A DNA stretch of 64,000 nt. Source: an uncultured Eubacteriales bacterium (lineage in GTDB: Bacteria > Acidobacteriota > Aminicenantia > Aminicenantales > Aminicenantaceae). The notes under the pieces are model-generated. The model made no database searches. It was not told the DNA's origin and was given only the letters and a program-made list of their open reading frames with translations. The stretch spans positions 15,040 to 79,039 of the forward strand of contig CAYTTR010000004.1 in NCBI GenBank assembly GCA_964440805.1, in the 5' to 3' direction. Position 1 is the first letter of the stretch, and each line of letters opens with the position of its first letter. Shown here piece by piece: positions 23,051 to 46,849 of the stretch. A program made the translations under genes and the position numbers.

Positions 23051-23714
23051 TTTCCCGGAGCAGTCTCTTTAGTTTATCGATCAGAAAACGGCGAAATTCA
23101 TCTATGCCGTTGCCTTGGACGGCAGAGGTCTGAAAAATCTTCAGCTTGGGATTAAGCTCCAAGGCTTCTGCAGCCGCTTTTTCCGGATTAAACGGGACGT
23201 GGGGGATAAGGTCTGCTTTGGTTATGACAAGACAGTCGGAAGTAGTAAAAGCTTTAGGGTATTTTTTGGGTTTGTCATCTCCTTCAGGCGATGAGAGCAG
23301 CACACAGCGAATACTTTCGCCCAAGTCATATCCGGCCGGGCAGACCAGGTTGCCCACATTTTCAATGAACAGAAAATCAAGGTCGGAGGGAATTTTGGAA
23401 AACAGTTGACCGATCATTTTAGCTTCAAGATGACAGGCTCCGCCGGTGGTGATTTGCCAGGCAGGAATGCCTTTGGCTTTGATGCGTTCAGCATCCCTTT
23501 CGGTTTCGATGTCTCCTTCAATTACGGCCATTTTATATTCCGGCTGAAAGGCTTCGGCCAATTTTTCCAACAAGCTGGTTTTACCTGCTCCTGGGGAGCT
23601 GAGAAAATTTATGGTCAGAATGCCTTTTCCGGTTAATTTTTCCCGTATTTCCGAGGCGATTTTTTTGTTGGAACCCAATAAATCTTTGAGGACTAAAACT
23701 TCTTTTTTCTTCAT
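23043..23714 (-). CDS. hypB: hydrogenase nickel-incorporation GTPase HypB
   Basis: The P-loop SSPGAGKTS and the motifs ENVGNLVCP and ITKADL are present. It overlaps hypA by 8 nt. Confidence 0.9.
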   Translation of the reverse strand: MKKKEVLVLKDLLGSNKKIASEIREKLTGKGILTINFLSSPGAGKTSLLEKLAEAFQPEYKMAVIEGDIETERDAERIKAKGIPAWQITTGGACHLEAKMIGQLFSKIPSDLDFLFIENVGNLVCPAGYDLGESIRCVLLSSPEGDDKPKKYPKAFTTSDCLVITKADLIPHVPFNPEKAAAEALELNPKLKIFQTSAVQGNGIDEFRRFLIDKLKRLLRENA

Positions 23715-24193
23715 TTTTTGCCTTCTGACAAGAGAGTGAAGAGAATATCTATAATTCGGGGTACGGCTTTTTCCATTTCGGGGGTTAAGTCTTCCCCCAG
23801 CCTAAAGATATTCTTGGCTTCAACAGCGATAACTTTCACCTCACCCGGAACATCCAGGCCGGTTTTCCGGCCTATTTCCAGCATTTGAGGGAAAGAAATA
23901 TAATGAGGTGAAGGCCCGGGAATGTGACGGAGATCTTTTCCATCGAGGACAGAGATTTTGCCTGTTACCGGATTATCTGCCTTGACGGTATCGATAATGA
24001 TGAGCCGGTCGAATCCCACAATTATATCCAGAAGAGAGAGACCGGAAAGGGAGCTGGCTTCAAGGGAGATCGACTGTCCGTTATCAATTAGTTTCCGGAA
24101 GGTCGGATCCTGCTTCACCTTTTCAATGACATGGATTCCCACCCCATCGTCACCGTAGAGTTCATTTCCTAAACCAAGTACCAGAGTTTTCAT
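23711..24193 (-). CDS. stand-alone [NiFe]-hydrogenase maturation endopeptidase (HyaD/HybD/HoxW family)
   Basis: 160 aa with LGLGNELYGDDGVG, LIIIDTV and SPHYISF, which match the positions of the three metal ligands of the family. Confidence 0.85.
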   Translation of the reverse strand: MKTLVLGLGNELYGDDGVGIHVIEKVKQDPTFRKLIDNGQSISLEASSLSGLSLLDIIVGFDRLIIIDTVKADNPVTGKISVLDGKDLRHIPGPSPHYISFPQMLEIGRKTGLDVPGEVKVIAVEAKNIFRLGEDLTPEMEKAVPRIIDILFTLLSEGKK

Positions 24194-26393: not shown

Positions 26394-26753
26394 TTAAATA
26401 TAGGCAGCGGCAACAATCAGGGAAGATAGTAAACCCAGAATAATAAGATTGAAGAAGCGGTAAAAAAATCCGGCTAAAGAAGGAGAAACTGATATCAACC
26501 GCCCGCTCAGGCGGCAGCGCACATCAGAACCCAGAAGGAAAGGCGCGCTTAGCATTTTGTCCCACAAACCTTTCAGAAGTGTATTGAAAAATCTCAGGCT
26601 GCGCCTCTTTTTTTCTCTAAGAGAGGAAGAAAAAAAAGCTCCAAAAGATAAGGGAATAAGGAGAATAACAGCACTGGTAAAAGTTATGATAAAAAGGAAG
26701 AGAGAAAAGATTAAGAATTGCTTTTTTTGTTTTTTAGCAGCGCAGCAGGCCAT
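26394..26753 (-). CDS. hypothetical membrane protein
   Basis: 119-aa ORF with three hydrophobic segments and basic loops. No recognisable family. Confidence 0.4.
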   Translation of the reverse strand: MACCAAKKQKKQFLIFSLFLFIITFTSAVILLIPLSFGAFFSSSLREKKRRSLRFFNTLLKGLWDKMLSAPFLLGSDVRCRLSGRLISVSPSLAGFFYRFFNLIILGLLSSLIVAAAYI

Positions 26754-26778
26754 TTGAGCCCTCCTTATCTATTTTCAC

Positions 26779-28008
26779 TCAGCGGAAATATTTTATGATT
26801 TGTTTAAAAGTGTCGATGAATGCATCGATTTCAGTAAAAGTGTTATAGGCCGAAAAGGAAATTCTAAGTGAATCAGAAATCTTCCGGGAGTTATAAAAAG
26901 AATGGACACAGTGTTTGCCTGAGCGAACCATAATATTGCGGCTTTCATTGAGAATTTTGGCAGCATCACTGACATTCAGTCCATCCACAATGAAATTGAG
27001 GATGCTGTTTCTGGCTGAGTGATCCTGGGGGCCGAGGATGCTTACACCTGGAATTTGTTTGATCTTCTCAGTGGCAAGGTGATTGAGTTTTATCACCTGG
27101 TTGAGGATGGTAGTTTTCCCCACTTTTCTAATATAATCCACAGCGACACCAGCCCCAATGACTCCGGCGTAATCCTGAAGCCCGGCTTCGAATTTATCGG
27201 GGAGCCCGGCTAAGGTGGCTGAAGTGTGGGTAGTATCGACTACAGTTTCTCCACCGGTTAGAAACTGAGGGAGGCTTTCAAGAAGGGATTTTTTTCCGTA
27301 GAGAATACCGATTCCTGTGGGTCCCCACATTTTATGGACGGATAAAACCAGAAAGTCAACATCCCAAGCTCTGACATCGAGAGGATGAGACAGTGCGCTC
27401 TGGGCTGCATCGACACAAACCAAAGCACCGGCCTGGTGAGAGGCTTCGATAATGTCTCTTACAGGAAAAGCGACTCCGGTGAGATTGGAGTGAGAAAGGA
27501 TTGAAACCAGTTTGACCCGTGGAGCGAAGGAAGTCAATTTTTTTCTGAAATGATTCAGGTCAAAGGAAGTATCGGGCAGAGTGGAAATAATAATCCTTTG
27601 GATACCTTTCTTTTTTTCCACCGCCTGCCAGGGAAGAAGATTAGAGTTATGCTCTATGTCTGAGGAAAAAATGATATCGCCTTTGGCCAAAGGGAGAATG
27701 TGAGCCAGCAAGTTAAGGCCTTCGGTGGCGTTACGGAGAAAGATGATTTCGTCAGAGTGGGCAGCATTGAGAAATTTCTGGAATTTTTTTCTTGAATTTT
27801 CATATTTTTCTGTAGTTTCAGCTCCGAAATGATGATTGGTCCGGCCGTGACAACCGGGAAAGTTGAAGTAGTAATCTACAATGGCCTCAATCACAGACCG
27901 AGGTTTAAGAGTCATGCAGGCATTGTCAAGATAAATGACTGGTTTCTTGTTGATGATTCGGGACAGGGAGGGAAAATCTTCTCTAAGTTTGTCCAACTGA
28001 AAAGCCAT
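26779..28008 (-). CDS. cysteine desulfurase, SufS-like class V aminotransferase
   Basis: 409 aa with the PLP lysine context LSVHKMWGPTGIGILYG, the active-site Cys loop VRSGKHCVH and an N-terminal IYLDNA. Confidence 0.85.
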   Translation of the reverse strand: MAFQLDKLREDFPSLSRIINKKPVIYLDNACMTLKPRSVIEAIVDYYFNFPGCHGRTNHHFGAETTEKYENSRKKFQKFLNAAHSDEIIFLRNATEGLNLLAHILPLAKGDIIFSSDIEHNSNLLPWQAVEKKKGIQRIIISTLPDTSFDLNHFRKKLTSFAPRVKLVSILSHSNLTGVAFPVRDIIEASHQAGALVCVDAAQSALSHPLDVRAWDVDFLVLSVHKMWGPTGIGILYGKKSLLESLPQFLTGGETVVDTTHTSATLAGLPDKFEAGLQDYAGVIGAGVAVDYIRKVGKTTILNQVIKLNHLATEKIKQIPGVSILGPQDHSARNSILNFIVDGLNVSDAAKILNESRNIMVRSGKHCVHSFYNSRKISDSLRISFSAYNTFTEIDAFIDTFKQIIKYFR

Positions 28009-28486
28009 GTTTTTCCTTTGTCAAAATAAAATGAATTGTAACTGTAATGATTACCTTTGTCAATAAATACTATTATTACGATAAAATTACTTGACACACA
28101 TTTCCAAACTGCGGTTGGAACCGCTGTTCCTGAATAATCCGAGTCCGGGGAGAGGGCGGATATGCACCATGCCTTCCCATTCTTAACCTGACTTCAAAAT
28201 TAGGAAGAAATCGGGAAAATTAACCTTGACCTTTGTGTTAATTTTTCATAAATAAAAGAGATGAAACTACCTCTTCCGGCAGTTGATGAAGAAAACCTGC
28301 CAATTATGGTTAACGGATTGATGGATTATACTTATTCGGATATAATCACTCCATTAGTTAGTTTGTTTTCCATTTAATATATGGTAGAAGAATATTATAA
28401 CAACTCGGATACTCTTACAACCGGAGTTGCCGTAAGCCCAAATGAAAAGCAACAATTTTTTTGTTTTCAATGAGGAGGATTACTAA

Positions 28487-31400
28487 ATGAAAAAGAGATT
28501 GATTCCTTTTTTAGTCTTTTTTATTTTTTTACTCTTTTCTTTTCCAGCCGAAGCTGTGGACATAAATAATACATTAATGCTGACTCAACCTGCGGTGGGG
28601 CAAAATATGATTGCTTTCTCTTATGCCAATGATCTCTGGACAGCTGATCTCCAGGGGCAGAATGTCCGCCGGTTGACTTCTCATTCCGGAGAAGAATCCA
28701 ATCCTGTTTTCTCGCCCGACGGTAAATGGATTGCTTTCAGTGGACAGTATGACGGCAACACCGATGTTTATCTTGTCCCGGCTGAGGGAGGGATCCCCAA
28801 AAGGCTCACTTGGCATCCGGGCGAGGATATTGTCAGGGGTTTTACCCCGGACGGTTCAGCCGTTGTCTTCATGTCCTCCCGCCATTCATTCACCAGAGCC
28901 AGAAGCCGTTTATTTACTGTTTCTGTGGACGGAGGCATGCCCCAGCCCTTGGTGATTCCGTATGCTCATAAAGCATCCTATTCTCCGGATGGGACAAAGA
29001 TGGCCTACACTCCCTTTGGAGAAGCTTTTCAACAGTGGAAGAATTACCGGGGAGGAACGGTTTCCCGGGTCTGGATTTTTAATTTCAATGACAACTCAAT
29101 TGAAAAAATCCCTCAACCGGAAGGACGCTGCAACGACACTGATCCTATGTGGCTGGGCGATAAAATTTACTTTCGTTCAGATAGAAACGGTGAGTTTAAC
29201 CTTTTTTCCTTTGACCCCGGTACCCGGGAAATTCGCCAGTTGACCCAGCATGATGATTTTCCTGTTGTTAGTGCTTCGGCTGGAGGAGGAAAGATTATCC
29301 ATGAGCAGGCCGGGCAGCTCCATCTCTTTGACCCGGCCAAGGAGACTACAGCTTCTCTAACTATAGGCGTTGCAGCTGACCTCCTTGAGCTCCGGCCCCG
29401 TTATGTTAAGGGAGAGCGTTATATCCGCCATGCTGATATTTCTCCTTCAGGAGCCAGGGCTGTTTTTGAATTCAGGGGGGAGGTAGTTACTTTGCCGGCT
29501 GAAAAAGGAGACTTCAGGAATTTGACCGGTACCCCGGGGGTTCATGAAAGGGAGCCTGTTTGGTCGCCGGACGGCAAAAAAATAGCTTATTTCTCAGATG
29601 AATCGGGTGAATATGCTCTTCATGTGTTTTCCAGAGACAAAGAGGAAGTAAGGAAATTCGAGCTTCCCGGCGCCGGCTTTTATGAGAGATTAGTCTGGTC
29701 ACCGGACAGTAAGAAATTAACTTATACAGATAATTCCTGGAGTCTTTTCTGGATTGACCCCGAGACTGGAATTTCAGAAAAAATAGGTCAGGAATACCTC
29801 TACGGTCCATCCGGACTTAAAACATTGAAGGGCGTCTGGTCGCCTGATTCCCGCTGGATTGCTTATACCTTAAACACCAGGGCTTATATTCAGCGGGTTT
29901 ATGTTTATTCGCTGGAAGAGAAGAAATCCTACCCTATAACCGACGGATTGAGTGAAGTAAGTGAACCTGAATTCGACAGCAGCGGAAAATACCTCTATTT
30001 CTTTGCCTCCACTGATGCCGGTCCGGTTAAACACTGGTTCGCCATGTCCAGTGCTGACATGGAAATGAATCAGGCCCTTTATTTAGCTGTTCTGCAAAAA
30101 GGAACACCTTCTCCTCTGGCCAAGGAAAGCGATGAAGAGAAGCTTGAAGAAGAAGGAAAAGAAGAAGCAGAAAAAGGTGCCGGCGAAAAAGCTGAGAAAA
30201 CTTCAGAAGATTCTCAAGTCAAGATTGATTTTGAAGATTTAAACGAAAGAATAGTCTCTTTCCCCATTGAATCGGCCGGTTATTTCAATCTTCAGGTTGG
30301 CGGTGAAGGTCAGATATATTACTTGGAAGTTCTTCCCGGAAGCCGCGGTTTTGGGCAAGAAAGGTCAAAACTTCATCTTTTCGACCTAAAAAAACGGCAG
30401 GATGAGGTGCTTATTTCTGGAATCAATAATTACAAAATCTCTGCTGATAATAAAAAAATCCTATATTTATCACGAAACCTATGGGGGATAGTTGATGCCG
30501 GGAAAAAAGTTAATCCAGGAGAGGGGAAGCTAAATGTTGATTCCATCGAGGCCCGCATTAATCCTGCAAAAGAATGGCAACAGATTTTTGATGAAGCCTG
30601 GAGGATAAACCGTGATTATTTTTATGATCCCGCTATGCATGGAGTTGACTGGGAAAAAATGCGGGAGAAATACAGCTATTTCCTCTCTCATCTTTCCTGC
30701 CGCCAGGATCTTTCCCGGGTAATCCAATGGATGTGCCGCGAATTGAGGGTCGGTCATCACAGAACAGGTGGTGGAGATACTCTGGTGGAGGCAAAACGTA
30801 TTCCCGTGGGATTGCTGGGAGCCGATTATTCCGTTGAAAACAACCGTTTCAGATTCAAGAAGGTTTACGGCGGTCTTAATTGGAATCCGGAACTCCGGTC
30901 ACCCTTGACGGAACCGGGAGTAGAAGTTAAAGAAAGAGAATATTTGCTGGCGGTAAACGGCGAGGATGTTAAGTTCCCGGCAAATTTATATCAATATTTC
31001 GATAACACAGCCAGCCGGCTTATCGAGATTACAGTCGGCCCCTCGCCGGATGGAAAAGGAGCCCGTACTGTCCAGGTGGTTCCTCTTCCCAATGAATATA
31101 ACCTGAGAAACCGTGATTGGGTGGAAGGTAACATTGAGAAGATCAACAAAGCCACTGACGGAAAAGTAGCCTATGTCTATGTGCCCAATACAACCACTTT
31201 GGGCCATACTTACTTTAAAAGATATTTCTTCCCCCAATCACATAAGGATGCCATAATTGTTGATGAGCGTTTTAACGGAGGAGGACAGGTAGCTGATTAC
31301 TATATAGATATTCTCCGGCGTCCCTTTGTCTGTATGTGGAATATGCGCTATGGAGCTGATCTTAAAACACCCAGTGCTTCAATCCAGGGGCCTAAAGTTA

Positions 31401-31768
31401 TGCTCATCAATGAATCTGCTGGTTCGGGCGGGGATTTGCTTCCCTGGATGTTCCGCAAGTTTGAGGTGGGAACGCTTATCGGAACCAGGACCTGGGGCGG
31501 TCTGGTGGGAACATTGGGCTTTCCTTTATTAATGGACGGAGGCTATGTCACCGCACCCAATCTTGCCATCTGGACCGAAGACGGTTGGGTGGTAGAAAAT
31601 GAAGGAGTTCCCCCGGATATTGAAGTGGAACAGATTCCGGCTGAAGTTATTGACGGTCATGATCCCCAACTGGAAAGAGCTATTCAGGTTGTTTTGGAAG
31701 AACTGGAAAAGAATCCTCCCCGAAGGCTGGTCCGGCCTCCCTACCCGGATAAGGTAAAGAGGAAATAG
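28487..31768 (+). CDS. tricorn-type protease (beta-propellers + PDZ + S41 peptidase domain), secreted
   Basis: 1093 aa with a signal peptide. It has repeated TolB-like blades (PVFSPDGKWIAFS, ASYSPDGTKMAY, PVWSPDGKKIAYF, LVWSPDSKKLTY, GVWSPDSRWIAY), an acidic linker and a C-terminal S41 region INESAGSGGD. Confidence 0.85.
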   Translation: MKKRLIPFLVFFIFLLFSFPAEAVDINNTLMLTQPAVGQNMIAFSYANDLWTADLQGQNVRRLTSHSGEESNPVFSPDGKWIAFSGQYDGNTDVYLVPAEGGIPKRLTWHPGEDIVRGFTPDGSAVVFMSSRHSFTRARSRLFTVSVDGGMPQPLVIPYAHKASYSPDGTKMAYTPFGEAFQQWKNYRGGTVSRVWIFNFNDNSIEKIPQPEGRCNDTDPMWLGDKIYFRSDRNGEFNLFSFDPGTREIRQLTQHDDFPVVSASAGGGKIIHEQAGQLHLFDPAKETTASLTIGVAADLLELRPRYVKGERYIRHADISPSGARAVFEFRGEVVTLPAEKGDFRNLTGTPGVHEREPVWSPDGKKIAYFSDESGEYALHVFSRDKEEVRKFELPGAGFYERLVWSPDSKKLTYTDNSWSLFWIDPETGISEKIGQEYLYGPSGLKTLKGVWSPDSRWIAYTLNTRAYIQRVYVYSLEEKKSYPITDGLSEVSEPEFDSSGKYLYFFASTDAGPVKHWFAMSSADMEMNQALYLAVLQKGTPSPLAKESDEEKLEEEGKEEAEKGAGEKAEKTSEDSQVKIDFEDLNERIVSFPIESAGYFNLQVGGEGQIYYLEVLPGSRGFGQERSKLHLFDLKKRQDEVLISGINNYKISADNKKILYLSRNLWGIVDAGKKVNPGEGKLNVDSIEARINPAKEWQQIFDEAWRINRDYFYDPAMHGVDWEKMREKYSYFLSHLSCRQDLSRVIQWMCRELRVGHHRTGGGDTLVEAKRIPVGLLGADYSVENNRFRFKKVYGGLNWNPELRSPLTEPGVEVKEREYLLAVNGEDVKFPANLYQYFDNTASRLIEITVGPSPDGKGARTVQVVPLPNEYNLRNRDWVEGNIEKINKATDGKVAYVYVPNTTTLGHTYFKRYFFPQSHKDAIIVDERFNGGGQVADYYIDILRRPFVCMWNMRYGADLKTPSASIQGPKVMLINESAGSGGDLLPWMFRKFEVGTLIGTRTWGGLVGTLGFPLLMDGGYVTAPNLAIWTEDGWVVENEGVPPDIEVEQIPAEVIDGHDPQLERAIQVVLEELEKNPPRRLVRPPYPDKVKRK

Positions 31769-32034: not shown

Positions 32035-33780
32035 TTAGTTTGTAATATTCTCCAGGATTTTTTCTGCCGCCCTCTTAACAGCAACAGATAAGTTTTTACC
32101 TTCCTCGAGTGTTTCCGGCTGTATGCCTAAAACATAAGTGTTTTTCATCTGGGCATAACTCATTTCGCCACATAAAAACGGACTAAACTTGTGGCTGAGA
32201 GAAGCGTTGTGCAGAACGCTAAGAAGGGGGATAAGAGAGACTTTCCCTGCTTTTGCTTTAAAGTCAACCGCATCCACAAAGATGACCGGCCGGTCTTTAC
32301 TGTTTCCGGAAAAAATTTCCCTGCCTTCAAGCTCTTTTTCCAGAAGGCTTTCTTTTCCTCCTTTCCTTAATTCATCAGCCAGAAAAATTCCGACGCCGTC
32401 ATCCGATCTCTCCGGATTGCCGATGCCGATAAAGAGAAGTTCCTCATCAGCCTGCAGTTCCTGAAGCCTTAGCTGCCAGTCGTTTTCTTCACCTTTTTTA
32501 ACTTCAGCCATGTGAACAGAGCAGCTAATGCAGGGATCGTAAGCTCTTACCAGAATATCCAAACGGTCCCGGATGGCATCTCCCTGACCTTTATCAAGGA
32601 GTGTCTGGGCTGCAATCAAGCCGTATCTTTCAATCTCTTCAGCGTTCTGGGCGGTGGGAGTTATGATATCGGCATAATCAACTACTCCGTCTTTAATCCG
32701 GTAATGATGAATAAGCAGCCCGCGGGGAGCTTCAACCAGGCCGGTGCCTTTACCTTCTTTATTTTCATAAGAAACTATGGCAGGATTTTCGCTTATGGCA
32801 AGGAGTTCATCGATGATTTCCTGGGTTCTTTCGAAAGCATAGACTATTTCCAGAGCCTGGGCAGCATTATTATAGAGTGGGTTGCGCTTCCAGTGCCGGT
32901 TGAAATACTTGCGGAACATTTCTCCTGCTTGTTTTTCCAACCGTTCTCCCAGGTTATTGACTCTGGCCAAGGCTCCCACTGAATAAGGTTTGTCATTATA
33001 ACGGCTTCTCTTGCAAAAGGAGTGAGAAACCACAAACTCGTTGGTAAGGTTCCGGTAGTCCTCGCGAAAGATTCTGTCGCCTGTGGAAAGAATTATTTCT
33101 TCTCCGGCAAAACCGTATTTTTCATCAGCCGGGTTGCAGCAGGCATAAATAGTATCATCCTCAGGGATATCCGGATAGTCTATGGTGCAGAAGAGGTCAA
33201 CAGTCTTCATCACAAAAGGCATAAACTGAAGCGCCCTGTTCTTGATCCAGGTAAGCTCGTCCCGGGCAGGCCATTGGCCGAAACCGCCGATTACTGGATT
33301 TTCTCCGTGGATAAAGCGGCCGCTTAAGGTTTTCATAATATGATTACCGAAATTTTTCATTTCCAGGGCTATCTTGACTTCAAATTCGTACTTGGAGGCC
33401 ATGGCAACAGCATTGGGGAAACCGAGGTAGTCAGGTAAGGCTAAGTAGAATGTGTGGAGTGAATGGCTCTCGATCATTTCTCCCATATGCGTCAATTCCC
33501 TGAGGAGCTGGACTTTTCGGGGAACTTTCACCTTGAGTGTATTTTCCATGGCCCTGATGGCGGCTATCTTGTGAGAGATAGAGCAGATGGCACAGATACG
33601 GGGAGCGAGACTGACGTCTTCCTCCGGGGTGCGGCCCAGAACCAGACGTTCAACGAGCCGCGGGCCTTCATTGATGATGAACTTAACATCTGTCACTACG
33701 TTTCCGTCTATAGTTGCTTCTATGCCACCGTTTCCTTCAACCCTTGGTAATTGTTCTATGGTTACCTTTTTCATTTTCAC
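32035..33780 (-). CDS. hydA: group-3b [NiFe]-hydrogenase large subunit (sulfhydrogenase alpha) fused to a maturation endopeptidase domain
   Basis: 581 aa. The N-terminal Ni-binding motif RICAICSISH and the C-terminal DPCISCSVH (His423) are present. A further 158 residues follow in frame, containing LFIGIGNPERSDDGVG, VIFVDAVD and SLSHKF. Confidence 0.85.
   Translation of the reverse strand: MKMKKVTIEQLPRVEGNGGIEATIDGNVVTDVKFIINEGPRLVERLVLGRTPEEDVSLAPRICAICSISHKIAAIRAMENTLKVKVPRKVQLLRELTHMGEMIESHSLHTFYLALPDYLGFPNAVAMASKYEFEVKIALEMKNFGNHIMKTLSGRFIHGENPVIGGFGQWPARDELTWIKNRALQFMPFVMKTVDLFCTIDYPDIPEDDTIYACCNPADEKYGFAGEEIILSTGDRIFREDYRNLTNEFVVSHSFCKRSRYNDKPYSVGALARVNNLGERLEKQAGEMFRKYFNRHWKRNPLYNNAAQALEIVYAFERTQEIIDELLAISENPAIVSYENKEGKGTGLVEAPRGLLIHHYRIKDGVVDYADIITPTAQNAEEIERYGLIAAQTLLDKGQGDAIRDRLDILVRAYDPCISCSVHMAEVKKGEENDWQLRLQELQADEELLFIGIGNPERSDDGVGIFLADELRKGGKESLLEKELEGREIFSGNSKDRPVIFVDAVDFKAKAGKVSLIPLLSVLHNASLSHKFSPFLCGEMSYAQMKNTYVLGIQPETLEEGKNLSVAVKRAAEKILENITN
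32038..32511 (-). other. in-frame C-terminal extension of HydA: hydrogenase maturation endopeptidase-like domain
   Basis: Residues 424-581 carry the GxGNxxxxDDGxG signature and Asp/His positions paralleling the stand-alone protease at 23711-24193 (LGLGNELYGDDGVG / IIIDTV / SPHYISF). Confidence 0.7.
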
Positions 33781-34556
33781 TTGCTCCCTTTGAGAAGTTC
33801 GAAAACTTCGGCTATTTTGGTTCCTGAATAGTTGGCCATCTTTTTCTTAATGAGCTCGATGTCGAATCCTTTATCCTTGAGAAGGTAGTATTCTGAGGTC
33901 CAGTTGGCTCCCTCAACCGGTCCCCAGCAGCCAACGCAAGGAAGATTATGGCTTGGACAAACGGCACTGCAACCGTCTTCTGTCAAGGGACCAAGGCAGA
34001 GGATGCCCTTTTTTAAAAGGCAATCATTCTCTTTGTATTTACAGGTGATACAAACTGGTTGAGGATAATGTTCCGGAGGATTGCCCCGGACTACCCGGGT
34101 GAAAAAATGGAGGAATTGTTCCTTACCTATGGGGCACCCTGGAAGATAGTAATCTACTTTAATATAAGCATCAATGGGTTTAGACTGAACCGGGCTGGTA
34201 TGAGCCATCCGGGTATCTCCATAAACATTTTTGTAATTTTCACTCCATTCATCTTTTTTTAGGAAACGGGCTTGAATTCCACCTACTGTGGCGCAGAGGC
34301 CGATAGCAACCACTATTTTGGCTCTTTCCCGGATTTCTTTAAGCTCTTCGATTTCTCTTTCTGTTGAGACCGATCCTTCAATAAGAGCTACATCCAGTTC
34401 GCCCTCAATGTTGTCGCTTTTTGCCATGAGGAAGGATTGGATGTCAACCGCCTGGAAGATATCCAGGAGTTCTTTTTCACAGTCCAGGATCAACAGGGCG
34501 TCTCCGGCACATCCGGTCAGTTCGTATATTCCTATTTTCAGTTTGTTCTCTTTCAT
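33777..34556 (-). CDS. hydD: group-3b [NiFe]-hydrogenase small subunit (sulfhydrogenase delta)
   Basis: ATG 34556 follows AAGGGGG and begins MKENKLKIGIYELTGCAGD. Fe-S cysteines (GLCATVGG, YYLPGCP, CVGCWGP) are present. The track ORF is 5'-overextended into hydG. Confidence 0.85.
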   Translation of the reverse strand: MKENKLKIGIYELTGCAGDALLILDCEKELLDIFQAVDIQSFLMAKSDNIEGELDVALIEGSVSTEREIEELKEIRERAKIVVAIGLCATVGGIQARFLKKDEWSENYKNVYGDTRMAHTSPVQSKPIDAYIKVDYYLPGCPIGKEQFLHFFTRVVRGNPPEHYPQPVCITCKYKENDCLLKKGILCLGPLTEDGCSAVCPSHNLPCVGCWGPVEGANWTSEYYLLKDKGFDIELIKKKMANYSGTKIAEVFELLKGSK

Positions 34557-34566
34557 TTTTTCCCCC

Positions 34567-35427
34567 TTAGATAAGCTCCCGCATATGGAGGACATCCCAA
34601 TAGGTAAAGACTGGTCCGTCAAGGCAGGTATAAATATAGTCAATAGCACAGTGGCCGCATTTTCCTACTCCGCATTTCATTCGTCTTTCCAGGGTCATTA
34701 AAATTTGGTCTTTGGGGATGTTCAGTTTAATGAATTCGTTAATGACAAACTTGTACATAACCGGCGGGCCGCAGACCAGGGCTACAGTGTTGGCCGGATC
34801 GATGTTTTTCAATTTGGGGAATAGAGTGGTTACCACTCCGGTGTTTTCTGTCCATTTTCCGGTATCATCTGCATCCACGGTGAGATAGCATTCAAGATCA
34901 TCCCTGTTTTTAAGAGAAAGAAATTCCTCGCGGAAAATCATCTCCACAGGTCTTTTGGCTCCGTGAAGCAGAATTACCCGCCTGAAGAGATCCCGGTTAT
35001 CTAAGCTATAGAAAAGAACCGAGCGGAGCGGAGCCACTCCCAGTCCGCCCATGACAATGAGCACATCCTTGCCTTTCATCTTTTCTACCGGAAAACCATC
35101 CCCATAAGGACCGCGCAGCCCGATTAAATCGTTTTCTTTCAACCTGAAGATGGCATTGGTTAATGTGCCTACCTTACGGATGCAGAATTCAAGAAGGCCG
35201 GGGCGAGAGGGGGTAGAAGAGATAGAGAAGGGAGCTTCGCCAGCACCGAGTACTGAAATCATGGCAAATTGGCCGGGCCTGTAACGGAAAGAAAGAGCCT
35301 TTTCCATGTCCACCAGTCGCACCTGGAAGAACTTAACGTCTTCTGTCAAATTATAGAGGCGGACAATCCGTGCTGCCTCAGGGAGGAAAGGATTGGTCCT
35401 ATTAATAGATTTATTTTCGCCGTTCAT
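34567..35427 (-). CDS. hydG: sulfhydrogenase gamma subunit (FAD/NAD(P)-binding, 2Fe-2S)
   Basis: 286 aa with ferredoxin-reductase-type RPGQFAMIS, GGLGVAP and the C-terminal cluster CGVGKCGHCAIDYIYTCLDGPVF. Confidence 0.85.
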   Translation of the reverse strand: MNGENKSINRTNPFLPEAARIVRLYNLTEDVKFFQVRLVDMEKALSFRYRPGQFAMISVLGAGEAPFSISSTPSRPGLLEFCIRKVGTLTNAIFRLKENDLIGLRGPYGDGFPVEKMKGKDVLIVMGGLGVAPLRSVLFYSLDNRDLFRRVILLHGAKRPVEMIFREEFLSLKNRDDLECYLTVDADDTGKWTENTGVVTTLFPKLKNIDPANTVALVCGPPVMYKFVINEFIKLNIPKDQILMTLERRMKCGVGKCGHCAIDYIYTCLDGPVFTYWDVLHMRELI

Positions 35428-36485
35428 TTTGTCACCTCTTTGGCCAGCCGGTTCCAGAAGGCCTCTACTTCTTCACCTTCCAGGGCGTGAGAAACTGTTT
35501 TTACATTGATATCCACCGGACAAGTGGTTACACAGCGGCCGCAACCCACACAGGCAGGTTTGCCGTATTTAGATATGTACGCCTGTAGTTTATGGGTGTA
35601 GTAGAGTTTGAGTCTTTGAGAGCGTTTCTCCCGGAAGTTTTCTCCTCCGGCTACTGCGGAGTAATTTTCCAGAGTACAGGCGTCCCAGCAGCGGCGAATT
35701 TCTGAAGTTTGCTTGCCCAGCAGCGGATGGTCTGTCATGTTGTAGCAGTTGCAGGTAGGGCAGACCATGCTGCAGGAACCGCAAGCTAAGCAGGCCTCTC
35801 CAAGTTTCTCCCATAGAGGATGATTGTAGCGTAGTTCTATTAAATCCGGCATGGCTACAAAGTCTATCTGTGCCTGAAAGGCTTTGTCACGCTCCTCGCG
35901 CCAGCGGATGTATTGCTGAATTTCATTTTCGCTGATTTCTTCTTCGAAGACGTCCGGTATTAGCCGGAGGGAGTCGTCTCCTTTACTTGAGCCGATCCAA
36001 ACTAAGTAGTAGGCATCGATTTCCGAGAAAAAGAGATCATACCCTTCTTCTACTATGTGGGTATGAGTTGATTTGCACAGACAGTGCTCATCAGGCCAAC
36101 ACGAATGCCCGAAAATAAGAGTGTTTTGACGGGCTTTCAAATAATAAGGATCTTCAAAGACTTGCTCGTGAAATCTGTTAAGAATGAGGAGTCCGTGGAT
36201 ATCACAGGGGTGAATACCGAAGATAACTTTCCGGCTGACATGAGAGAAATCTTCTTTATAACTTTGAGGGGTGGCTTCAAACATTTTGAACTGGGGCGGA
36301 ATGAACAATTTTTTGGGCGGCAGGATGGTTCGGTTGTAATCGAGATCAATTTGCGAAAAATCATCAATATACTGGAAGGCGTGCTTGTTCTCTCCTTTTT
36401 TGACTGGAGCGAAAAGCTCGACTTCTTTAGAGACCGCTTCCAGGAATAATGGAAGTTTTTCCTTCTTGAGTTTGACGACTTTCAT
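35424..36485 (-). CDS. hydB: sulfhydrogenase beta subunit (AsrA-like 4Fe-4S protein)
   Basis: 353 aa with CLACGSCSMVCPTCNC and CVGCGRCVTTCP. The gene order B-G-D-A is as in the Pyrococcus-type sulfhydrogenase. Confidence 0.8.
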   Translation of the reverse strand: MKVVKLKKEKLPLFLEAVSKEVELFAPVKKGENKHAFQYIDDFSQIDLDYNRTILPPKKLFIPPQFKMFEATPQSYKEDFSHVSRKVIFGIHPCDIHGLLILNRFHEQVFEDPYYLKARQNTLIFGHSCWPDEHCLCKSTHTHIVEEGYDLFFSEIDAYYLVWIGSSKGDDSLRLIPDVFEEEISENEIQQYIRWREERDKAFQAQIDFVAMPDLIELRYNHPLWEKLGEACLACGSCSMVCPTCNCYNMTDHPLLGKQTSEIRRCWDACTLENYSAVAGGENFREKRSQRLKLYYTHKLQAYISKYGKPACVGCGRCVTTCPVDINVKTVSHALEGEEVEAFWNRLAKEVTK

Positions 36486-36606: not shown

Positions 36607-37845
36607 TTATATTACTGTAAAAGAATTGTAAATGTATATCTTACAGAAATTAAAGTAAATAGAAAATATTCTGAAGAAGGGAAAAAATCCCGGTTTTTTT
36701 TTAATAAAGAAGTAATGAGTATTTTTCCCACCCTCTCTGTAGAAATTTGGTACATTGGGAAAACGCGAAGCAGCCAGTGCTTTTTTTACTGAGGGGGAGA
36801 GGATCTTGATTCTCTTCTTAGCTTTTTTATTATATTTCTGGAGAAAGTGGTCCACTAAAAGTTGGATGTCTTCTTTTCTTCGTCTTAAAGGAGGAAGATG
36901 GATTGGAACCACGCTGAGGCGGTAAAATAGATCTTCTCTGAATTTTCCTTCCCTGACAGAATCAGACAGGTTCTGGTTGGTGGCAGCAATGATGCGGACA
37001 TCCACTTTTATAGGACGGGAACTGCCTATCCGGGTGACTTCCCTTTCCTGGATAACTCTTAGAAGTTTCGCTTGAATGTTAAGAGAAATGTTAGAGATCT
37101 CATCTAAGAATATAGTCCCTCCGTTAGCTACTTCGAAACGGCCGTGTTTGGTTTCATAGGCACCGGTAAAAGATCCTTTGACATGTCCAAACAGCTCACT
37201 TTCAAACAAGCTTTCCACAAGAGCGCCGCAGTCAACAACAACAAAAGGTGCTTTCTTTCTGGGACTGTGATTGTGGATTTCCCTGGCGAGGAGTTCTTTT
37301 CCGGTTCCGCTTTCTCCGGAGATAAGAACTGTACTTTCTGTAGGACTGACTTTTCGGAAAACTTCCATCACTTTTTGCATAGCCGGGCTGCGGCCTATCA
37401 CCATGTTGAAAGTACTGTTTTTTTCAGGAAATTGTCTCTCTTTTTGTCGCTCTTGGAGGTGTTTGCTTGAATCCAGGGCTTTTTTAACCATGACCCGGAG
37501 TTCTTCCGGGCTGAACGGCTTGGCTAAATAATCGAAAGCTCCTCTTTTAATTGTTTCTACCGCAGATTCAATGGAAGCATGCCCGGTAATGATAATAACC
37601 GGAAGGTCAGGTTGTTCTTTCTTGAGCCGGGAAAGGGCTTCAAATCCATTTAACTTGGGCAGCTTCAGGTCAAGAAGAACCAAATCAATTTTTTCTTTTT
37701 TAAAAAGGTCAAGGCCTTGAAGGGCATTTTCAGCCCCCATCACTTCATAACCGGCTCTTTTCAGTACCTGAGTACAGGAGTCGCGGATAGCTTCCTCGTC
37801 ATCTATAATTAAAATCCTGTTTTTCTTACTCATTATTGTCTTCAA
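36607..37845 (-). CDS. sigma-54-dependent response regulator (REC + AAA+), with no recognisable C-terminal HTH
   Basis: REC motifs are ILIIDDEEAIRD, DLVLLDLKLP and YLAKPF. AAA+ motifs are GESGTGKE, the GAFTGA variant GSFTGA and IFLDEI. After ...LSPSVKKALAASRFP the expected GNVRELxN and Fis-type HTH are absent, and the last ~45 codons are AT-rich and low-complexity. Confidence 0.75.
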   Translation of the reverse strand: MKTIMSKKNRILIIDDEEAIRDSCTQVLKRAGYEVMGAENALQGLDLFKKEKIDLVLLDLKLPKLNGFEALSRLKKEQPDLPVIIITGHASIESAVETIKRGAFDYLAKPFSPEELRVMVKKALDSSKHLQERQKERQFPEKNSTFNMVIGRSPAMQKVMEVFRKVSPTESTVLISGESGTGKELLAREIHNHSPRKKAPFVVVDCGALVESLFESELFGHVKGSFTGAYETKHGRFEVANGGTIFLDEISNISLNIQAKLLRVIQEREVTRIGSSRPIKVDVRIIAATNQNLSDSVREGKFREDLFYRLSVVPIHLPPLRRRKEDIQLLVDHFLQKYNKKAKKRIKILSPSVKKALAASRFPNVPNFYREGGKNTHYFFIKKKPGFFPFFRIFSIYFNFCKIYIYNSFTVI

Positions 37846-39154
37846 GCTTTACTGGTATAGTGACAGCAAAGGTTAAGCCTTTGCCTTGCTCGCTGTCCAC
37901 ATCGATTTTCCCCTCATGTTTCTGGATAATGCTGTAACTTATGGAAAGTCCCAGGCCGGTTCCTTTTCCCACTTCTTTGGTGGTGAAAAAAGGTTCAAAA
38001 ATTCGCCTTTTGTCTTCTTCACTCATTCCATGGCCGGTATCAGCGAAAGAAATGCGAATGTTTTTTCCATCATCATCAAGCTGGGTGGTTAAGGTAAGTG
38101 TACCCTTTCCGTCCATGGCTTCGGCTGCGTTGATTATGATGTTGGTGAATACTTGTTGTAATTGACCGCCGTCAGCAATAGTTCTGGGGAGATTAGAGTC
38201 ATAATTTCTTTTTATTTTAATATTTTGGAAAAGAACCTGTCTTTCCACAATGGAGAGAGATTTTTCTACAATTTCATTAATATCCACCGATGACATTTCC
38301 GGTTCCTTGGGCCGGGCAAATTCCAGGAGCCCCTTGACTATATCCTTGCAGCGGGATGTTTCCTTGACGATTTTTCTCAAATTTTCATAGTGAGGACTGT
38401 TTTTTTTGGTATCTTCAAGGAGAAGGTGACTGTAAATCAGGATTCCACCCAGAGGATTATTTATTTCGTGAGCGATTCCGGCAGCCAGTTTTCCCAGGGA
38501 GGCCAGTTTTTCCGATTGGACAAGATGGGTTTGCATGGCAGTAAGCTCCTTGGTCCTTTCTTCCACTTTTTTCTCCAGGGTTTTTCCCCACTCAAGAAGT
38601 TTTCTGTTAGCTTCCTTTAGGTTGTCTATCATAGAATTAAAGGATTCAGCTAAGTAGCCCAGTTCATCAGAAGAGCGGATTTCAACTTTGTGGGAGAGGT
38701 CGCCGTTGGCGATGCTTTTAGTGGCAGCCACCATTTTATGCAGGGGTTTGATGATGCGGGAGGTGGAAAAATTTAGAATTATGAGGAGAAGAACTACACA
38801 GAGAGAAGCCATAATAGTAAAAGTCAACATCAGACGGTTTGTAGTGTCAATGTAAGGTTTTTCCAGCATTCCAACATAAAGAATGCCGATAATTTTTCCG
38901 TTTATATTTCGGATAGGTTCATAGGCGGTGATATACCAGTCATTGACAACAAAGGCCCGGTCAATCCATGATTTTCCTTCCCGGAGAACGGCAGTGTTGA
39001 CTTCTTTGGAGACCCTTGTCCCTAAGGCTCTGGTTTCGTCTTTATTCCTGACATTGGTGGAAATGCGGAGGTCTTTTTGAAAGATGGTTACAGTTCCTAT
39101 TTCGCGGCCTTTATACTTTTTCCCTTTATAAACGATTTCCTTTACCCGGTCCAC
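37826..39154 (-). CDS. sensor histidine kinase, C-terminal part (distal Cache half, TM2, HAMP, HisKA, HATPase_c)
   Basis: GTG start. It contains GTVTIFQKDLRISTNV...AFVVNDWYITAYEPI (Cache), TM, HAMP, the H-box AAGIAHEINNPL, the N-box and G boxes DTGHGM and GTGLGLSI. Confidence 0.8.
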   Translation of the reverse strand: MDRVKEIVYKGKKYKGREIGTVTIFQKDLRISTNVRNKDETRALGTRVSKEVNTAVLREGKSWIDRAFVVNDWYITAYEPIRNINGKIIGILYVGMLEKPYIDTTNRLMLTFTIMASLCVVLLLIILNFSTSRIIKPLHKMVAATKSIANGDLSHKVEIRSSDELGYLAESFNSMIDNLKEANRKLLEWGKTLEKKVEERTKELTAMQTHLVQSEKLASLGKLAAGIAHEINNPLGGILIYSHLLLEDTKKNSPHYENLRKIVKETSRCKDIVKGLLEFARPKEPEMSSVDINEIVEKSLSIVERQVLFQNIKIKRNYDSNLPRTIADGGQLQQVFTNIIINAAEAMDGKGTLTLTTQLDDDGKNIRISFADTGHGMSEEDKRRIFEPFFTTKEVGKGTGLGLSISYSIIQKHEGKIDVDSEQGKGLTFAVTIPVKLEDNNE

Positions 39155-39158
39155 TATT

Positions 39159-39695
39159 TCATGATTGCGGTTTAGCAGTGGTTATGAATTCCATATAAGC
39201 CTGATTGGCTAATTGACTTCCTTCTTTGAGGAGCTCTTCTCTTGGGATTACTTGAGGAGAGGTGACCGCCTGTCCTTTAAGGGCTCGCCTTACAAATTCG
39301 TCTGTGGATTGATCATTCCCGGCTACTTCCGGATTCCTTGAGCGGAGAATAACTTTTCCCTGATGGTCGCAAATAGTGAGTGCATCCAATCCGTTTTCTT
39401 GCCTGACTTTTCCCAGAATTCTTAACAGTGCTTCCCGGTTTTGAACTCGAACCGCCTGATGAAGACTTTCCCTGGATGAGGTCATGGTCACAATGTCTTT
39501 GATATCATTTAGTTTGCCGTTAAAAACCAGCCAGGCGGCAGCCAGATCATGCCTTACTTTTGCTTGAGCCTGGGTTATAAGTGTATTTTTAACCAGACGC
39601 CAGCCAATGATAAGAGAGATCAATCCTCCAAAGATTATAACGAAGAGAAAACTAAGGATGATTTTTTTGCGAAGGGAAAGACGCAAAGGCTTCAT
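39159..39695 (-). CDS. sensor histidine kinase, N-terminal part (TM1 + proximal Cache half), separated from the rest by a frame change
   Basis: 178 aa with TM1 (ILSFLFVIIFGGLISLIIGW) followed by periplasmic sensor sequence. It stops 4 nt before the next ORF, and the downstream frame is already open as PLLNRNHEIVD over the same nucleotides. Confidence 0.65.
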   Translation of the reverse strand: MKPLRLSLRKKIILSFLFVIIFGGLISLIIGWRLVKNTLITQAQAKVRHDLAAAWLVFNGKLNDIKDIVTMTSSRESLHQAVRVQNREALLRILGKVRQENGLDALTICDHQGKVILRSRNPEVAGNDQSTDEFVRRALKGQAVTSPQVIPREELLKEGSQLANQAYMEFITTAKPQS

Positions 39696-39881: not shown

Positions 39882-41342
39882 TTATTTCTTTAGCCTTTCG
39901 ATTAGCTCTCCGTGATGGTTGTAAATATTGATAACCAAAGGCATATCACCAGGAAGAGCATGAGTCCCGCAGGCATGACAGGGATCATAAGGCCGGAAAG
40001 CCATTTCTGCCAGGTTTAGTAAACCTTCGGAGACTTTACCGCCTTTAATAAAAGCTTTGGCAGCTTTTTCAACCGACATGGTGATAGCTGCTGCATTGTT
40101 TACGGTGGCCACGATTAAGTTGGCTTCGGTCAGGATGCCTTTGGAATCTGTTTTGTAGTGGTGGATGAGAGTTCCACGGGGTGCTTCCACAATTCCTACT
40201 CCTTCATCGGGTGTTTCTGTAGGGATGTTTCTAATATTGGGATCGGTTATATCCTTGTTTTCCAGTAATTGTACCATTGCTTCTGTAGCTTGAAGGGCCT
40301 CGATTAAGCGGGCCCAGTGAAAAGCCAAGGTATGGTGAGACGGTTTTCCTCCCAGGACTTCATACATTTTCTCGTAGGCCTCCTGGGCCAGAGGAGTAGC
40401 CATTCCGTCGGAAGCATTCAACCGGGCAAGGGGGGCCACCCGGTAGATGCCGCTGTCTTTACCTTCGCTGAATCCATTCCAACCCACTTTTTTCAAGAAG
40501 GGGAACTTAATGTAGGTCCAGGGCTCTACATGTTCTGAAATATGATCAAGGTATTCGCTGGGGGAAAACTTGGCGTATTCTTTTCCTGTTGGATCGACTA
40601 CCCGGACCGGTCCGTCGTAAAAGTTTACTTTGTTATTTTCATCAACCAGGCCCATGTAATAGGTTTCCATCTTGTAGGCGTCCCCTGTGACCAGGTCGAC
40701 ATACTCTTTGTTCTTGAGCACTACATCATCGAAAATCTGCAAAGCAAACTGAGCAAATTCAACAGCGAATTTGGCTGTTTCCAGGAACTTGAGGCGGTGT
40801 TCTTCATCCAGGCCCTTGGATACTCCTCCAGGGAGGCCGGAAACCGGATGAATGACTTTTCCGCATAAATGATTAAGAATATCCCGGCATTCTCTCCTGA
40901 CCCGGATGACTTTTCCTCCGATCTCCAGCCCCACTTTACCCAGCACGCCAAGAATATTTCGTTCGGCTGCAGGTGCCTGAGGCCCGACCACAAAGTCCGG
41001 TCCTCCGAGAAAAAAGAAATGGAGCGTATGGTCCTCCATCATGAAAGTATTGTAGATAAGTTCGCGAAGCATTTTGGCGGCGGGAGTAGGTTGAACATGA
41101 AACAGGTCGTCCAGGGTTTTGGTTGAAGCCATGTGGTGGGCAGTGGGGCAAACACCGCATATCCGCGGGGTAATGCGGGGCATTTCCTCAGCCGGACGGC
41201 CTACTGCGAACTGTTCGAATCCGCGAAGTTCCGGTATTTGAAGAAAAGCTCTTTCTACATCTCCTTTGTCATCCAGAAAGATTTCAATTTTTCCATGTCC
41301 TTCCAGACGGGTGATAGGGTCTATAGTTATGCGTTGGCTCAT
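39882..41342 (-). CDS. mvhA: group-3c [NiFe]-hydrogenase large subunit (MvhA-type)
   Basis: 486 aa with RICGVCPTAHH near the N-terminus and DPCHACGTH followed by a 25-aa cleavable extension. Confidence 0.9.
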   Translation of the reverse strand: MSQRITIDPITRLEGHGKIEIFLDDKGDVERAFLQIPELRGFEQFAVGRPAEEMPRITPRICGVCPTAHHMASTKTLDDLFHVQPTPAAKMLRELIYNTFMMEDHTLHFFFLGGPDFVVGPQAPAAERNILGVLGKVGLEIGGKVIRVRRECRDILNHLCGKVIHPVSGLPGGVSKGLDEEHRLKFLETAKFAVEFAQFALQIFDDVVLKNKEYVDLVTGDAYKMETYYMGLVDENNKVNFYDGPVRVVDPTGKEYAKFSPSEYLDHISEHVEPWTYIKFPFLKKVGWNGFSEGKDSGIYRVAPLARLNASDGMATPLAQEAYEKMYEVLGGKPSHHTLAFHWARLIEALQATEAMVQLLENKDITDPNIRNIPTETPDEGVGIVEAPRGTLIHHYKTDSKGILTEANLIVATVNNAAAITMSVEKAAKAFIKGGKVSEGLLNLAEMAFRPYDPCHACGTHALPGDMPLVINIYNHHGELIERLKK

Positions 41343-42319: not shown

Positions 42320-42743
42320 TATGATTTCCTCCGTTCCAGGACAGGGGTCCTAATTTACGTATTTCTTCTGTGAATTCATTGCATACTTTCTGGAACTTTG
42401 CTCCTTCCGCCGCTGAAACCCATTCCAGGCGGAAGCGTTCTTTTTCGATTCCGAACTGTTCCAACATTTTAGAGAGTAATCTGTGCCTTCTTAAAGCTTT
42501 GTAGTTTCCCTCTTGGTAATGACAATCGCCGGGGTGACACCCAGAAATAAGGACACCGTCTGCGCCTTCTCTGAAAGCTTTGAGGACAAATTGAGGGTCT
42601 ACTCTACCGCTGCACATGACCCTGATAATCCGCATGTTGGGAGCATAGGTCATGCGGGCAGTGCCGGCGAGATCAGCGCCCGTATAAGAGCACCAATTGC
42701 ATAAAAAGCCAACCAATTTAGGGTCGAAGGCTTGCTCGCTCAT
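42312..42743 (-). CDS. mvhD: methyl-viologen-reducing hydrogenase delta subunit (MvhD/FlpD)
   Basis: 143 aa with [24 protein letters not shown] and [21 protein letters not shown]. Confidence 0.85.
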
Positions 42744-42832
42744 TTATTGGCCTCCTTCCAATTTTACGGTCGTCTCCTGAAGAGAAAACCTTGTATTATG
42801 GACGAATTGAATCGTTTATTCTACCACTTTTT

Positions 42833-44590: not shown

Positions 44591-44602
44591 GATTCCTCCT
44601 CC

Positions 44603-46435: not shown

Positions 46436-46448
46436 ATCTCCCCTCCTC

Positions 46449-46838: not shown

Positions 46839-46849
46839 TTTTCCCCCTC

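Follow-up and report, generated by a model that had tools for sequence, protein, structure and literature searches.

A group 3b [NiFe]-hydrogenase large subunit encoded in one frame with a HycI-type maturation endopeptidase domain

Background

The gene described here lies in a 64,000-nucleotide stretch of DNA (hereafter, the window) from an uncultured Eubacteriales bacterium that GTDB places in the Aminicenantaceae (assembly GCA_964440805.1, contig CAYTTR010000004.1, positions 15,040 to 79,039 of the forward strand). It is found on the minus strand within a large hydrogenase neighborhood and encodes, in a single open reading frame (ORF), both the large-subunit precursor of a [NiFe]-hydrogenase and a maturation endopeptidase domain (Table 1). 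Directly upstream, on the same strand, are genes for the beta, gamma and delta subunits of a group 3b enzyme, an arrangement that is kept in the 80 related loci discussed below (L001-L080). Both parts of the fused protein belong to well-known families; the unusual feature is the covalent union of a substrate with its dedicated protease.

In the established pathway of [NiFe]-hydrogenase maturation, Fe(CN)2CO and then Ni are inserted into the large-subunit precursor, and Ni serves as the template that is recognized by a specific endopeptidase (PMC6769069). The cut falls after a His located three residues past Cys-4, and once the C-terminal extension has been removed, Cys-4 can close over the cofactor (PMC6769069). 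The role of the extension is considered structural, the specificity of the protease is not set by it, and the endopeptidase itself resists classification as a metalloprotease or as a serine protease (PMC6769069). Ni-dependent removal of the tail is the last step of maturation, and its mechanism is still poorly understood. We are not aware of a solved structure in which the protease is bound to its precursor, and to our knowledge the characterized HycI and HybD endopeptidases (MEROPS family A31) are all free proteins, which encounter their substrate in trans.

Table 1. Features of the fused gene and of its surroundings in the window
Feature	Position	Strand	Remarks
Whole ORF, 3b [NiFe]-hydrogenase large-subunit precursor and fused protease	32035..33780	-	581 codons from GTG 33780
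Probable true start of the fused gene	ATG 33774	-	gives 579 aa
Predicted mature large subunit, to His423	32512..33774	-	47.9 kDa from GTG start; aligns end to end with HyhL 5yxy and SHI alpha
Predicted scissile bond, His423-Met424 (codons CAC ATG)	32509..32514	-	DPCxxCxxH cleavage rule
Tail/linker, residues 424-447	32440..32511	-	residues 424-433 flexible; helix 435-445 contains the invariant Trp435
HycI-type (peptidase A31) maturation endopeptidase domain, residues 448-581	32038..32439	-	TIGR00072, 5zby alignment, Foldseek
Putative metal ligand D461	32398-32400	-	aligned with known A31 ligand position
Putative metal ligand D503	32272-32274	-	aligned with known A31 ligand position
Putative metal ligand H530	32191-32193	-	aligned with known A31 ligand position
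Small (delta) subunit, 3b hydrogenase	33777..34649	-	Pfam Oxidored_q6; listed start probably too far upstream
Gamma subunit (FAD/NAD(P)-binding diaphorase)	34567..35427	-	Pfam NAD_binding_1, DHODB_Fe-S_bind, FAD_binding_6
Beta subunit (4Fe-4S)	35424..36485	-	Pfam Fer4_22
Cache-domain histidine kinase and sigma-54 response regulator	39695..36607	-	
MvhA-like [NiFe] large subunit, 25-residue tail after ...CGTH	39882..41342	-	candidate substrate of stand-alone protease
Hydrogenase small subunit, second cluster	41339-42319	-	
MvhD	42312-42743	-	
585-aa 2Fe-2S/4Fe-4S protein	42833-44590	-	
NuoF-like	44603-46435	-	
NuoE-like	46850-47302	-	
[FeFe]-hydrogenase-like protein (Fe_hyd_lg_C and Fe-S domains)	48928-50301	-	
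HdrC/HdrB/HdrA-like genes (Fer4_8, CCG, FAD_oxidored)	51108-53417	-	
Tricorn-type S41 peptidase, 1093 aa	28487-31768	opposite to fused gene	
Class-V aminotransferase	26779-28008		
Stand-alone HybD/FrhD-like maturation protease	23711..24193	-	TIGR00072 97 bits, hupD 58.6 bits
HypB	23043-23714	-	Pfam cobW/HypB
HypA	22703-23050	-	Pfam HypA

Results and discussion

A large subunit and a protease in one reading frame

The fused gene is a single stop-free frame of 581 residues, both in the six-frame ORF list and in the raw sequence. Residues are numbered throughout from the GTG codon at 33780, following an earlier reading of the window that was made from its sequence alone (the sequence-only reading). 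Residues 1-423 form a large subunit ending in DPCISCSVH, and residues 424-581 comprise a 24-residue tail and an endopeptidase domain. The extension, 158 codons plus the stop codon (32035..32511), continues the large-subunit frame with no interrupting stop. The protein reads ...RAYDPCISCSVH(423) followed by MAEVKKGEENDWQLRLQELQADEELLFIGIGNPERSDDGVG...VIFVDAVD...SLSHKF...ENITN and the stop; after RAYDPCISCSVH(423), it continues with MAEVKKGEENDWQLRLQELQADEE LLFIGIGNPERSDDGVG ... before VIFVDAVD is reached. The sequence-only reading had described 158 in-frame residues past His423 that carry three endopeptidase motifs, and the frame, its coordinates and all three motifs were recovered here.

At 33780, the GTG shares nucleotides with the stop codon (TGA) of the upstream small-subunit gene. 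A GGGAG Shine-Dalgarno sequence is located 9 nt 5' of the ATG at 33774, and homologues of the fused protein are 579 aa long and start with MKK(V/I)TI. The protein is probably two residues shorter than the listed ORF, beginning at this ATG, and what is called His423 would then be His421 of the real protein. An internal translation start at Met424 was rejected as a conserved feature: it has no upstream Shine-Dalgarno sequence, and 45 of 121 homologues have Leu or Ile in place of this Met.

Several lines of evidence identify residues 1-423 as the large subunit of a [NiFe]-hydrogenase of group 3b, the NAD(P)-linked class typified by HyhL and the sulfhydrogenases, as the sequence-only reading had proposed when it placed the end of the mature part at His423. 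The predicted Ni-Fe ligand cysteines are C63/C66 (in PRICAIC) and C417/C420 (in DPCISC), and these cysteines and H423 are invariant in an alignment of 121 sequences. The top NCBIfam models, ShyA (371 bits) and HydA (365 bits), match residues 6-426 with scores below the equivalog cut-offs (371 vs 700), so the protein is best described as a bacterial 3b relative and not as an orthologue of ShyA or HydA. The best sequence matches in PDB are Thermococcus kodakarensis HyhL (5yxy, E 6e-96) and Pyrococcus furiosus SHI alpha (E ~1e-96), whose alignments span residues 6-423 at 35-39% identity and stop exactly at their His424; other [NiFe] groups score worse for this half, with E values of 8.5e-46 for MvhA and 7e-43 for FrhA. 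When an AlphaFold2 model of the whole protein was searched with Foldseek, the top matches were P. furiosus SHI structures 9nf0, 9e15 and 9nez, with template modelling (TM) scores of 0.83-0.84. The fused protein thus shares with HyhL 5yxy and SHI alpha (9nez, 9e15) the RICxxC and DPCxSCxxH motifs, the fold (TM 0.79-0.84) and the beta-gamma-delta-alpha operon. The difference lies past the cleavage-site His, where HyhL and SHI precursors have a 4-residue tail (428 vs 424) and the protein described here has 158 residues that are predicted to fold into an enzyme.

The listed delta ORF also appears to start too early. It has 290 aa, begins with GTG and overlaps the gamma gene by 83 nt; its homologues have 257-260 aa, so its translation probably begins at an ATG within the listed ORF, near MKENKLKIG.

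Profile and structure-based analyses point to a HycI-like hydrogenase maturation endopeptidase domain in the extension. The NCBIfam model TIGR00072 'hydrogenase maturation protease' has a curated cut-off of 47.45 bits; it scores 65.1 bits (E 6.7e-18) on the extension alone and 61 bits on the whole fused protein, at residues 447-580. An AlphaFold2 model of residues 424-581 had a predicted local distance difference test (pLDDT) score of 83 and a predicted TM score (pTM) of 0.80. With this model, Foldseek returned 11 PDB matches at E <= 0.001, the next match having an E value of 1e-2. Ten of the 11 are chains of hydrogenase maturation proteases (5zby, 5ija, 5ttx, 2e85, 2i8l, 1cfz, 2kml), namely T. 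kodakarensis HycI and HybD, a thaumarchaeal Hyd-2 peptidase, and Escherichia coli HycI and HybD; the sole other match is an uncharacterized Wolinella protein (3pu6). The protease fold that the sequence-only reading had presumed is therefore the one that the model supports. The top match is T. kodakarensis HycI 5zby (E 3e-9, TM 0.69), and over the HycI and HybD structures 5zby, 2e85/2i8l and 1cfz the values range from 3e-9 to 2e-7 and from 0.59 to 0.69. The fused domain resembles these proteases in its core of ~135 residues and in the positions of an Asp-Asp-His triad, and differs from them in being covalently attached to its substrate, C-terminal to the scissile bond, and in carrying at its N-terminus an additional helix that contains an invariant Trp.

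The same reading had assigned an endopeptidase signature and three HybD-type metal-ligand positions to the extension. In a sequence alignment with T. kodakarensis HycI 5zby (E 5e-5), the GDD, VDA and TH motifs of the latter are in register with D461, D503 and H530, and all three residues are invariant in the 121 sequences. We take the metal-binding residues of family A31, in E. coli HybD/HycI numbering, to be Glu/Asp16, Asp62 and His90/93. Aligned with E. coli HybD, D461 falls on Glu16 and D503 on the Asp of its ADA motif; the His is offset by 4 residues in this weak pairwise alignment.

Conservation of the fusion

Homologues were collected in two ways. A protein-cluster search covered 5.8 billion proteins, from which the best 120 clusters (from NCBI, JGI, ENA and Logan assemblies) are reported, and a genome scan covered one genome per GTDB species, from which the best 80 loci are reported. 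The sequence-only reading had pointed to such a database search for subunit-endopeptidase fusions as a check on its proposal, and fusions were found at full length in both sets. All 120 clusters have 572-602 aa, with 63-99% identity and 97-100% query coverage; full-length matches were present in 80/80 loci, at 58-71% identity. Approximately half of these loci are labelled Aminicenantes, and most of the others bear non-specific names, for instance 'uncultured Eubacteriales'. In 76/80 loci, a single stop-free frame covers both the large subunit and the protease. Stops or a frameshift break the fused gene in L068, L073 and L080, and these breaks are either assembly errors or pseudogenes.

An in-frame fusion of this kind could also be produced by a sequencing or assembly artefact, if a missed stop or a frameshift joined hyhL to a downstream protease gene. 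In unfused relatives, these genes either lie side by side or share 4 nt, so that a single-base error could merge them, and three of the 80 related loci are indeed broken. Against this, the same in-frame junction, a fixed linker length and the conserved tail H-M/L-A-x-V-K-K-A-P..DW are seen in the best 120 clusters, drawn from NCBI, JGI, ENA and Logan assemblies, and the junction is also present in 76 of the 80 species-representative genomes, diverged as they are. Since independent errors cannot explain a junction that is repeated across diverged genomes and separate assemblies, we regard an artefact as ruled out for all practical purposes by the full-length homologues and the intact loci.

Residues invariant in the 121 sequences include H423 and W435, and, in the protease domain, G452, G454, D460, D461, G464, F501, D503, G512, S529, H530, P534, G552, Q554 and P555. 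Within the tail, A425, V427, K429, A430 and P431 are nearly invariant. Approximate ratios of nonsynonymous to synonymous substitution rates (dN/dS) were 0.11 in the large subunit, ~0.26 in the protease domain and 0.35 in the tail; these values are rough because dS is near saturation. They indicate that the extension is under purifying selection. Judged by these sequence comparisons, the fusion is real, lineage-wide and probably functional.

Origin of the fusion

We searched 1.84 billion 50%-identity representatives for 3b large subunits. Most of the large subunits found have 410-445 aa, and a few are long. Unfused bacterial 3b operons (L085, L082) have the same beta-gamma-delta-alpha order, followed by a gene for a 158-aa HycI-family protease; large subunit and protease are separate polypeptides there. 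Where a single frame runs on in the fused gene, these operons have a tail of 7 residues that ends in a stop codon, and the two genes are spaced by 19 nt or overlap by 4 nt. In L085 (P0125), the alpha subunit has 438 aa and the tail VAKINRT, and the HycI gene follows after 19 nt. Its product is 26% identical to the fused domain over 135 residues (E 2e-9) and is the closest free relative of that domain among those compared.

The window also encodes a stand-alone protease, and the sequence-only reading had drawn a parallel between this protein and the fused domain. Both are members of TIGR00072, but the likeness was overstated: a BLASTP comparison aligns 25 residues only (E 4e-4), and the two are distant paralogues. 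The operon-linked HycI of L085 is closer, which argues that the fused domain descends from a cognate 3b protease. The fusion would then have merged the large-subunit gene with the neighboring cognate protease gene, and the large subunit's 'own' endopeptidase, as the earlier reading called it, corresponds to the 158-aa HycI gene that lies directly 3' of the large-subunit gene in unfused relatives. Duplication of the window's free protease was rejected as a source, given the 25-residue similarity, differing subfamily preferences and the better match of the L085 HycI.

A protein of Candidatus Eisenbacteria (P0122, 616 aa) is a further member of the fused family found in Aminicenantes. From the Trp helix on, its extension can be aligned with ours (E 3e-22), and it has ~38 extra low-complexity residues directly after the cleavage site, giving a leash of ~48 residues (vs ~10 here).

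A second fused family in Actinobacteria

A second family of fused proteins, represented by P0255, P0266 and P0229, comprises ~30 clusters, several of which are labelled Actinobacteria or Streptosporangiaceae. Its members (P0255, P0289, P0292 and ~25 further clusters) have 596-621 aa, are labelled 'hydrogenase maturation protease', and fall within a set of unfused enzymes (431-435 aa) from Acidimicrobiia, Chloroflexi and other groups. The unfused Acidimicrobiia operon L082 (P0318) has the order beta-cNMP-gamma-delta-alpha(434)-HycI(158, 4-nt overlap)-HypC-EamA-DUF6390. The fused actinobacterial operon L083 has the same order, with alpha and HycI as one 596-aa gene and no separate protease.

As in the Aminicenantes protein, a 3b large subunit is followed by a linker and an A31 protease in which the ligands are kept. 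The large subunit, however, is ~31% identical, the linker is unrelated and lacks the Trp helix, and the protease is HybD/HupD-like, as opposed to the HycI-like protease of the Aminicenantes fusion. On account of these differences, the actinobacterial fusion is probably an independent event.

Predicted cleavage site and fate of the extension

By the rule that places the cut three residues past Cys-4, the predicted scissile bond lies between His423 and residue 424, which is M, L or I in the 121 sequences. In the AlphaFold2 models, pLDDT is < 50 over residues 421-433, indicating predicted disorder, and helix 435-445 is modelled with confidence and seems to be part of the protease module. The scissile bond would therefore sit on a flexible leash of ~10 residues. 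In 76/76 intact genes, the spacing between H423 and G452, the glycine that comes first in the protease, amounts to 27-28 residues. Cleavage at this position would convert the 65.5-kDa precursor into a mature subunit of 47.9 kDa and a tail-protease fragment of 17.5 kDa, in agreement with the products of ~47 kDa and ~17 kDa that had been anticipated from the sequence.

The invariant Trp435 helix and the fixed linker length could alternatively reflect a stable inter-domain arrangement, that is, an extension that is never removed and forms a permanent extra domain, e.g., a regulatory or metal-sensing module. We consider such a reading quite improbable. The mature SHI structures 9nez, 9e15 and 9nf0 align to the large-subunit part only (~420 columns), with nothing that matches the extension; large subunits that skip processing have no extension rather than a long one; and the cleavage-site His is invariant within a segment that is predicted to be disordered and accessible. 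In the established model, moreover, loss of the extension is what allows Cys-4 to close over the cofactor (PMC6769069).

The stand-alone protease and removal in trans

The sequence-only reading had placed a stand-alone protease at 23711-24193, and this gene is present, on the minus strand, adjoining HypB and HypA. In many related loci, the 3b operon is likewise followed by receiver proteins, the free protease and hypB, in this order, and the free protease lies just upstream of hypB in 22 of the 28 related loci that have hypB in range and is absent in the other six, as judged at the level of the locus. In L055, the gene for the 585-aa Fe-S protein directly precedes the 3b operon, and the fused gene leads directly into hypB and hypA; this locus lacks the Mvh genes together with the regulators and the free protease. 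L001 contains an amidase, the 3b operon with the fused gene and, directly after the latter, HypB and HypA, and then GDH, with no free protease at the locus.

These observations bear on the possibility that the fused domain no longer cuts and is an oversized 'intramolecular chaperone' tail, which would be removed in trans by the protein encoded at 23711..24193 or by another protease. A free A31 protease is encoded in the same neighborhood, here as in most of the related loci, and a C-terminal extension is thought to be purely structural (PMC6769069). Invariance of the metal ligands and of the GxGN..DDG, FxDA, SH and GxQP motifs over deep divergence would, on the other hand, be unexpected for a mere spacer. 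L001, L055 and four other loci keep the fused domain without an adjacent free protease, and in Actinobacteria the fused gene replaces the only operon-encoded protease. Removal in trans by such a route is in our estimation unlikely.

A division of labor is suggested by circumstantial evidence at the locus level, with which the L055 pattern fits: as the sequence-only reading had supposed, the free protease would serve the Mvh enzyme and the fused protease the 3b enzyme. The MvhA-type large subunit indeed ends in the ordinary tail of 25 aa that the sequence-only reading had ascribed to it, located after ...CGTH.

Proposed maturation of the fused precursor

Taken together, the data make it probable, in our view, that the fused gene encodes a 3b large-subunit precursor whose removable C-terminal extension is its cognate HycI-type endopeptidase, cutting between His423 and Met424. 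That a cut occurs, where it falls, and that the fused domain makes it are predictions drawn by analogy from the established maturation pathway. Three points weigh against this assignment. First, the free protease in the extended cluster of 22/28 loci could in principle process the fused subunit. Secondly, the Pfam model PF01750 (HycI) scores marginally under its threshold here (22.2 vs 23); it is recorded for many homologues of the fused protein. Finally, the nearest unfused relative (P0123, L084) has no adjacent protease gene, so a merger in this family is directly illustrated only by the more distant P0125.

In the maturation scheme that we propose, HypCDEF would deliver Fe(CN)2CO, and HypA and HypB, encoded nearby, would deliver Ni. 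The tethered domain would recognize the Ni-loaded site via D461, D503 and H530 and, after nickel insertion, cut between His423 and Met424. The freed 47.9-kDa subunit would close around the cofactor and assemble with delta, beta and gamma, and the 17.5-kDa fragment consisting of the tail and the protease would be released. The tether would provide 1:1 stoichiometry, a high local concentration and built-in specificity, and the bulky extension may in addition hold the active site open and block early assembly. More tentatively, the fused domain may be the sole protease of the 3b enzyme and a strictly cis-acting, Ni-gated, single-turnover autoprotease that excises itself; we regard this stronger version, whose single-turnover action in cis had been put forward in the sequence-only reading, as possible but rather doubtful. 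The only hints of action in cis are indirect: the flexible segment of 10 residues that follows the scissile bond, and a linker length that is fixed within Aminicenantes and 38 residues greater in Eisenbacteria. A cut made by one precursor copy in another, or repeated action of the released fragment, would be compatible with the sequence as well. If true, the stronger version would make the 3b enzyme self-maturing for the last step and its precursor a natural covalent A31 enzyme-substrate complex.

Proteases of viral polyproteins offer a parallel, as these enzymes are translated within the chain that they cut, which guarantees stoichiometry and proximity. In the hydrogenase precursor, unlike in these systems, the cut would depend on prior insertion of Ni into the substrate part, and activity in cis is putative.

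Novelty and implications

In a full-text search of ~8.3 million papers and preprints, with subscription-only papers outside its reach, we found no description of a natural fusion of a large subunit and its protease; the papers found that mention fusions concern two-hybrid constructs, the HPS-PHI fusion and [FeFe]-[NiFe] hybrids. Public databases already hold the fused sequences, many of them with both Pfam domains, under inconsistent names ('hydrogenase maturation protease', 'sulfhydrogenase subunit alpha', 'nickel-dependent hydrogenase large subunit'). As a consequence, hydrogenase surveys may miscount in Aminicenantes and Actinobacteria.

The fusion shows that the 'tail' of a large-subunit precursor can be a whole folded domain, which supports a structural over a sequence-specific role of the tail. 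It makes the question of intramolecular cleavage directly testable, and, with a ligand mutation, it would be a ready-made 1:1 tethered complex for cryo-electron microscopy or crystallography. The heterologous production of NAD(P)-linked hydrogenases could also be simplified, since one accessory gene fewer would be needed and the problem of protease specificity would not arise.

Other fusions and neighboring genes

Additional large-subunit fusions were noted among the homologues. P0312, an actinobacterial protein of 1006 aa, has an acetate-kinase domain (PF00871) joined to the fused subunit-protease, probably as a result of a gene-calling merger. P0145 (549 aa) is a 3b large subunit with a different, 129-residue extension after DPCISCSAH that has no protease-family match. 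The motif HGHLGPYVVVGYRL in this extension may resemble FmdE-type domains, and the protein may be another kind of tail fusion. P0157, P0194 and P0206 (583-588 aa) are 3b proteins whose large subunit carries a delta domain at its N-terminus, as shown for P0157 and as suggested by length and alignment range for the other two. These chains stop precisely at the cleavage-site His and hence have no tail to remove.

Past the 3b operon (36485..32035), the window contains the S41 peptidase, which is encoded on the other strand, and a cysteine desulfurase-like gene; next come genes for two receiver proteins and a kinase, and then those for the free protease, HypB and HypA. The region at 26394-31768, between the fused gene and the module of receiver, kinase, protease and hypBA genes, contains genes that are extra relative to many related loci: the S41 peptidase, the aminotransferase and a 119-aa ORF. 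On the other side of the operon, the layout of the second hydrogenase cluster (39882-47302) recalls the electron-bifurcating [NiFe] hydrogenase HydABCSL, and PDB 7t2r is among the large-subunit matches. Upstream of the NuoEF and Mvh genes, at 47307-50737 on the minus strand, HATPase-domain proteins and a PHP-domain protein are encoded on either side of the [FeFe]-hydrogenase-like protein, and this region has the appearance of an [FeFe]-hydrogenase module with a sensory or regulatory role. The Hdr-like set adjoins the hydrogenase region here, and in L081 a similar set is located downstream of the fused gene.

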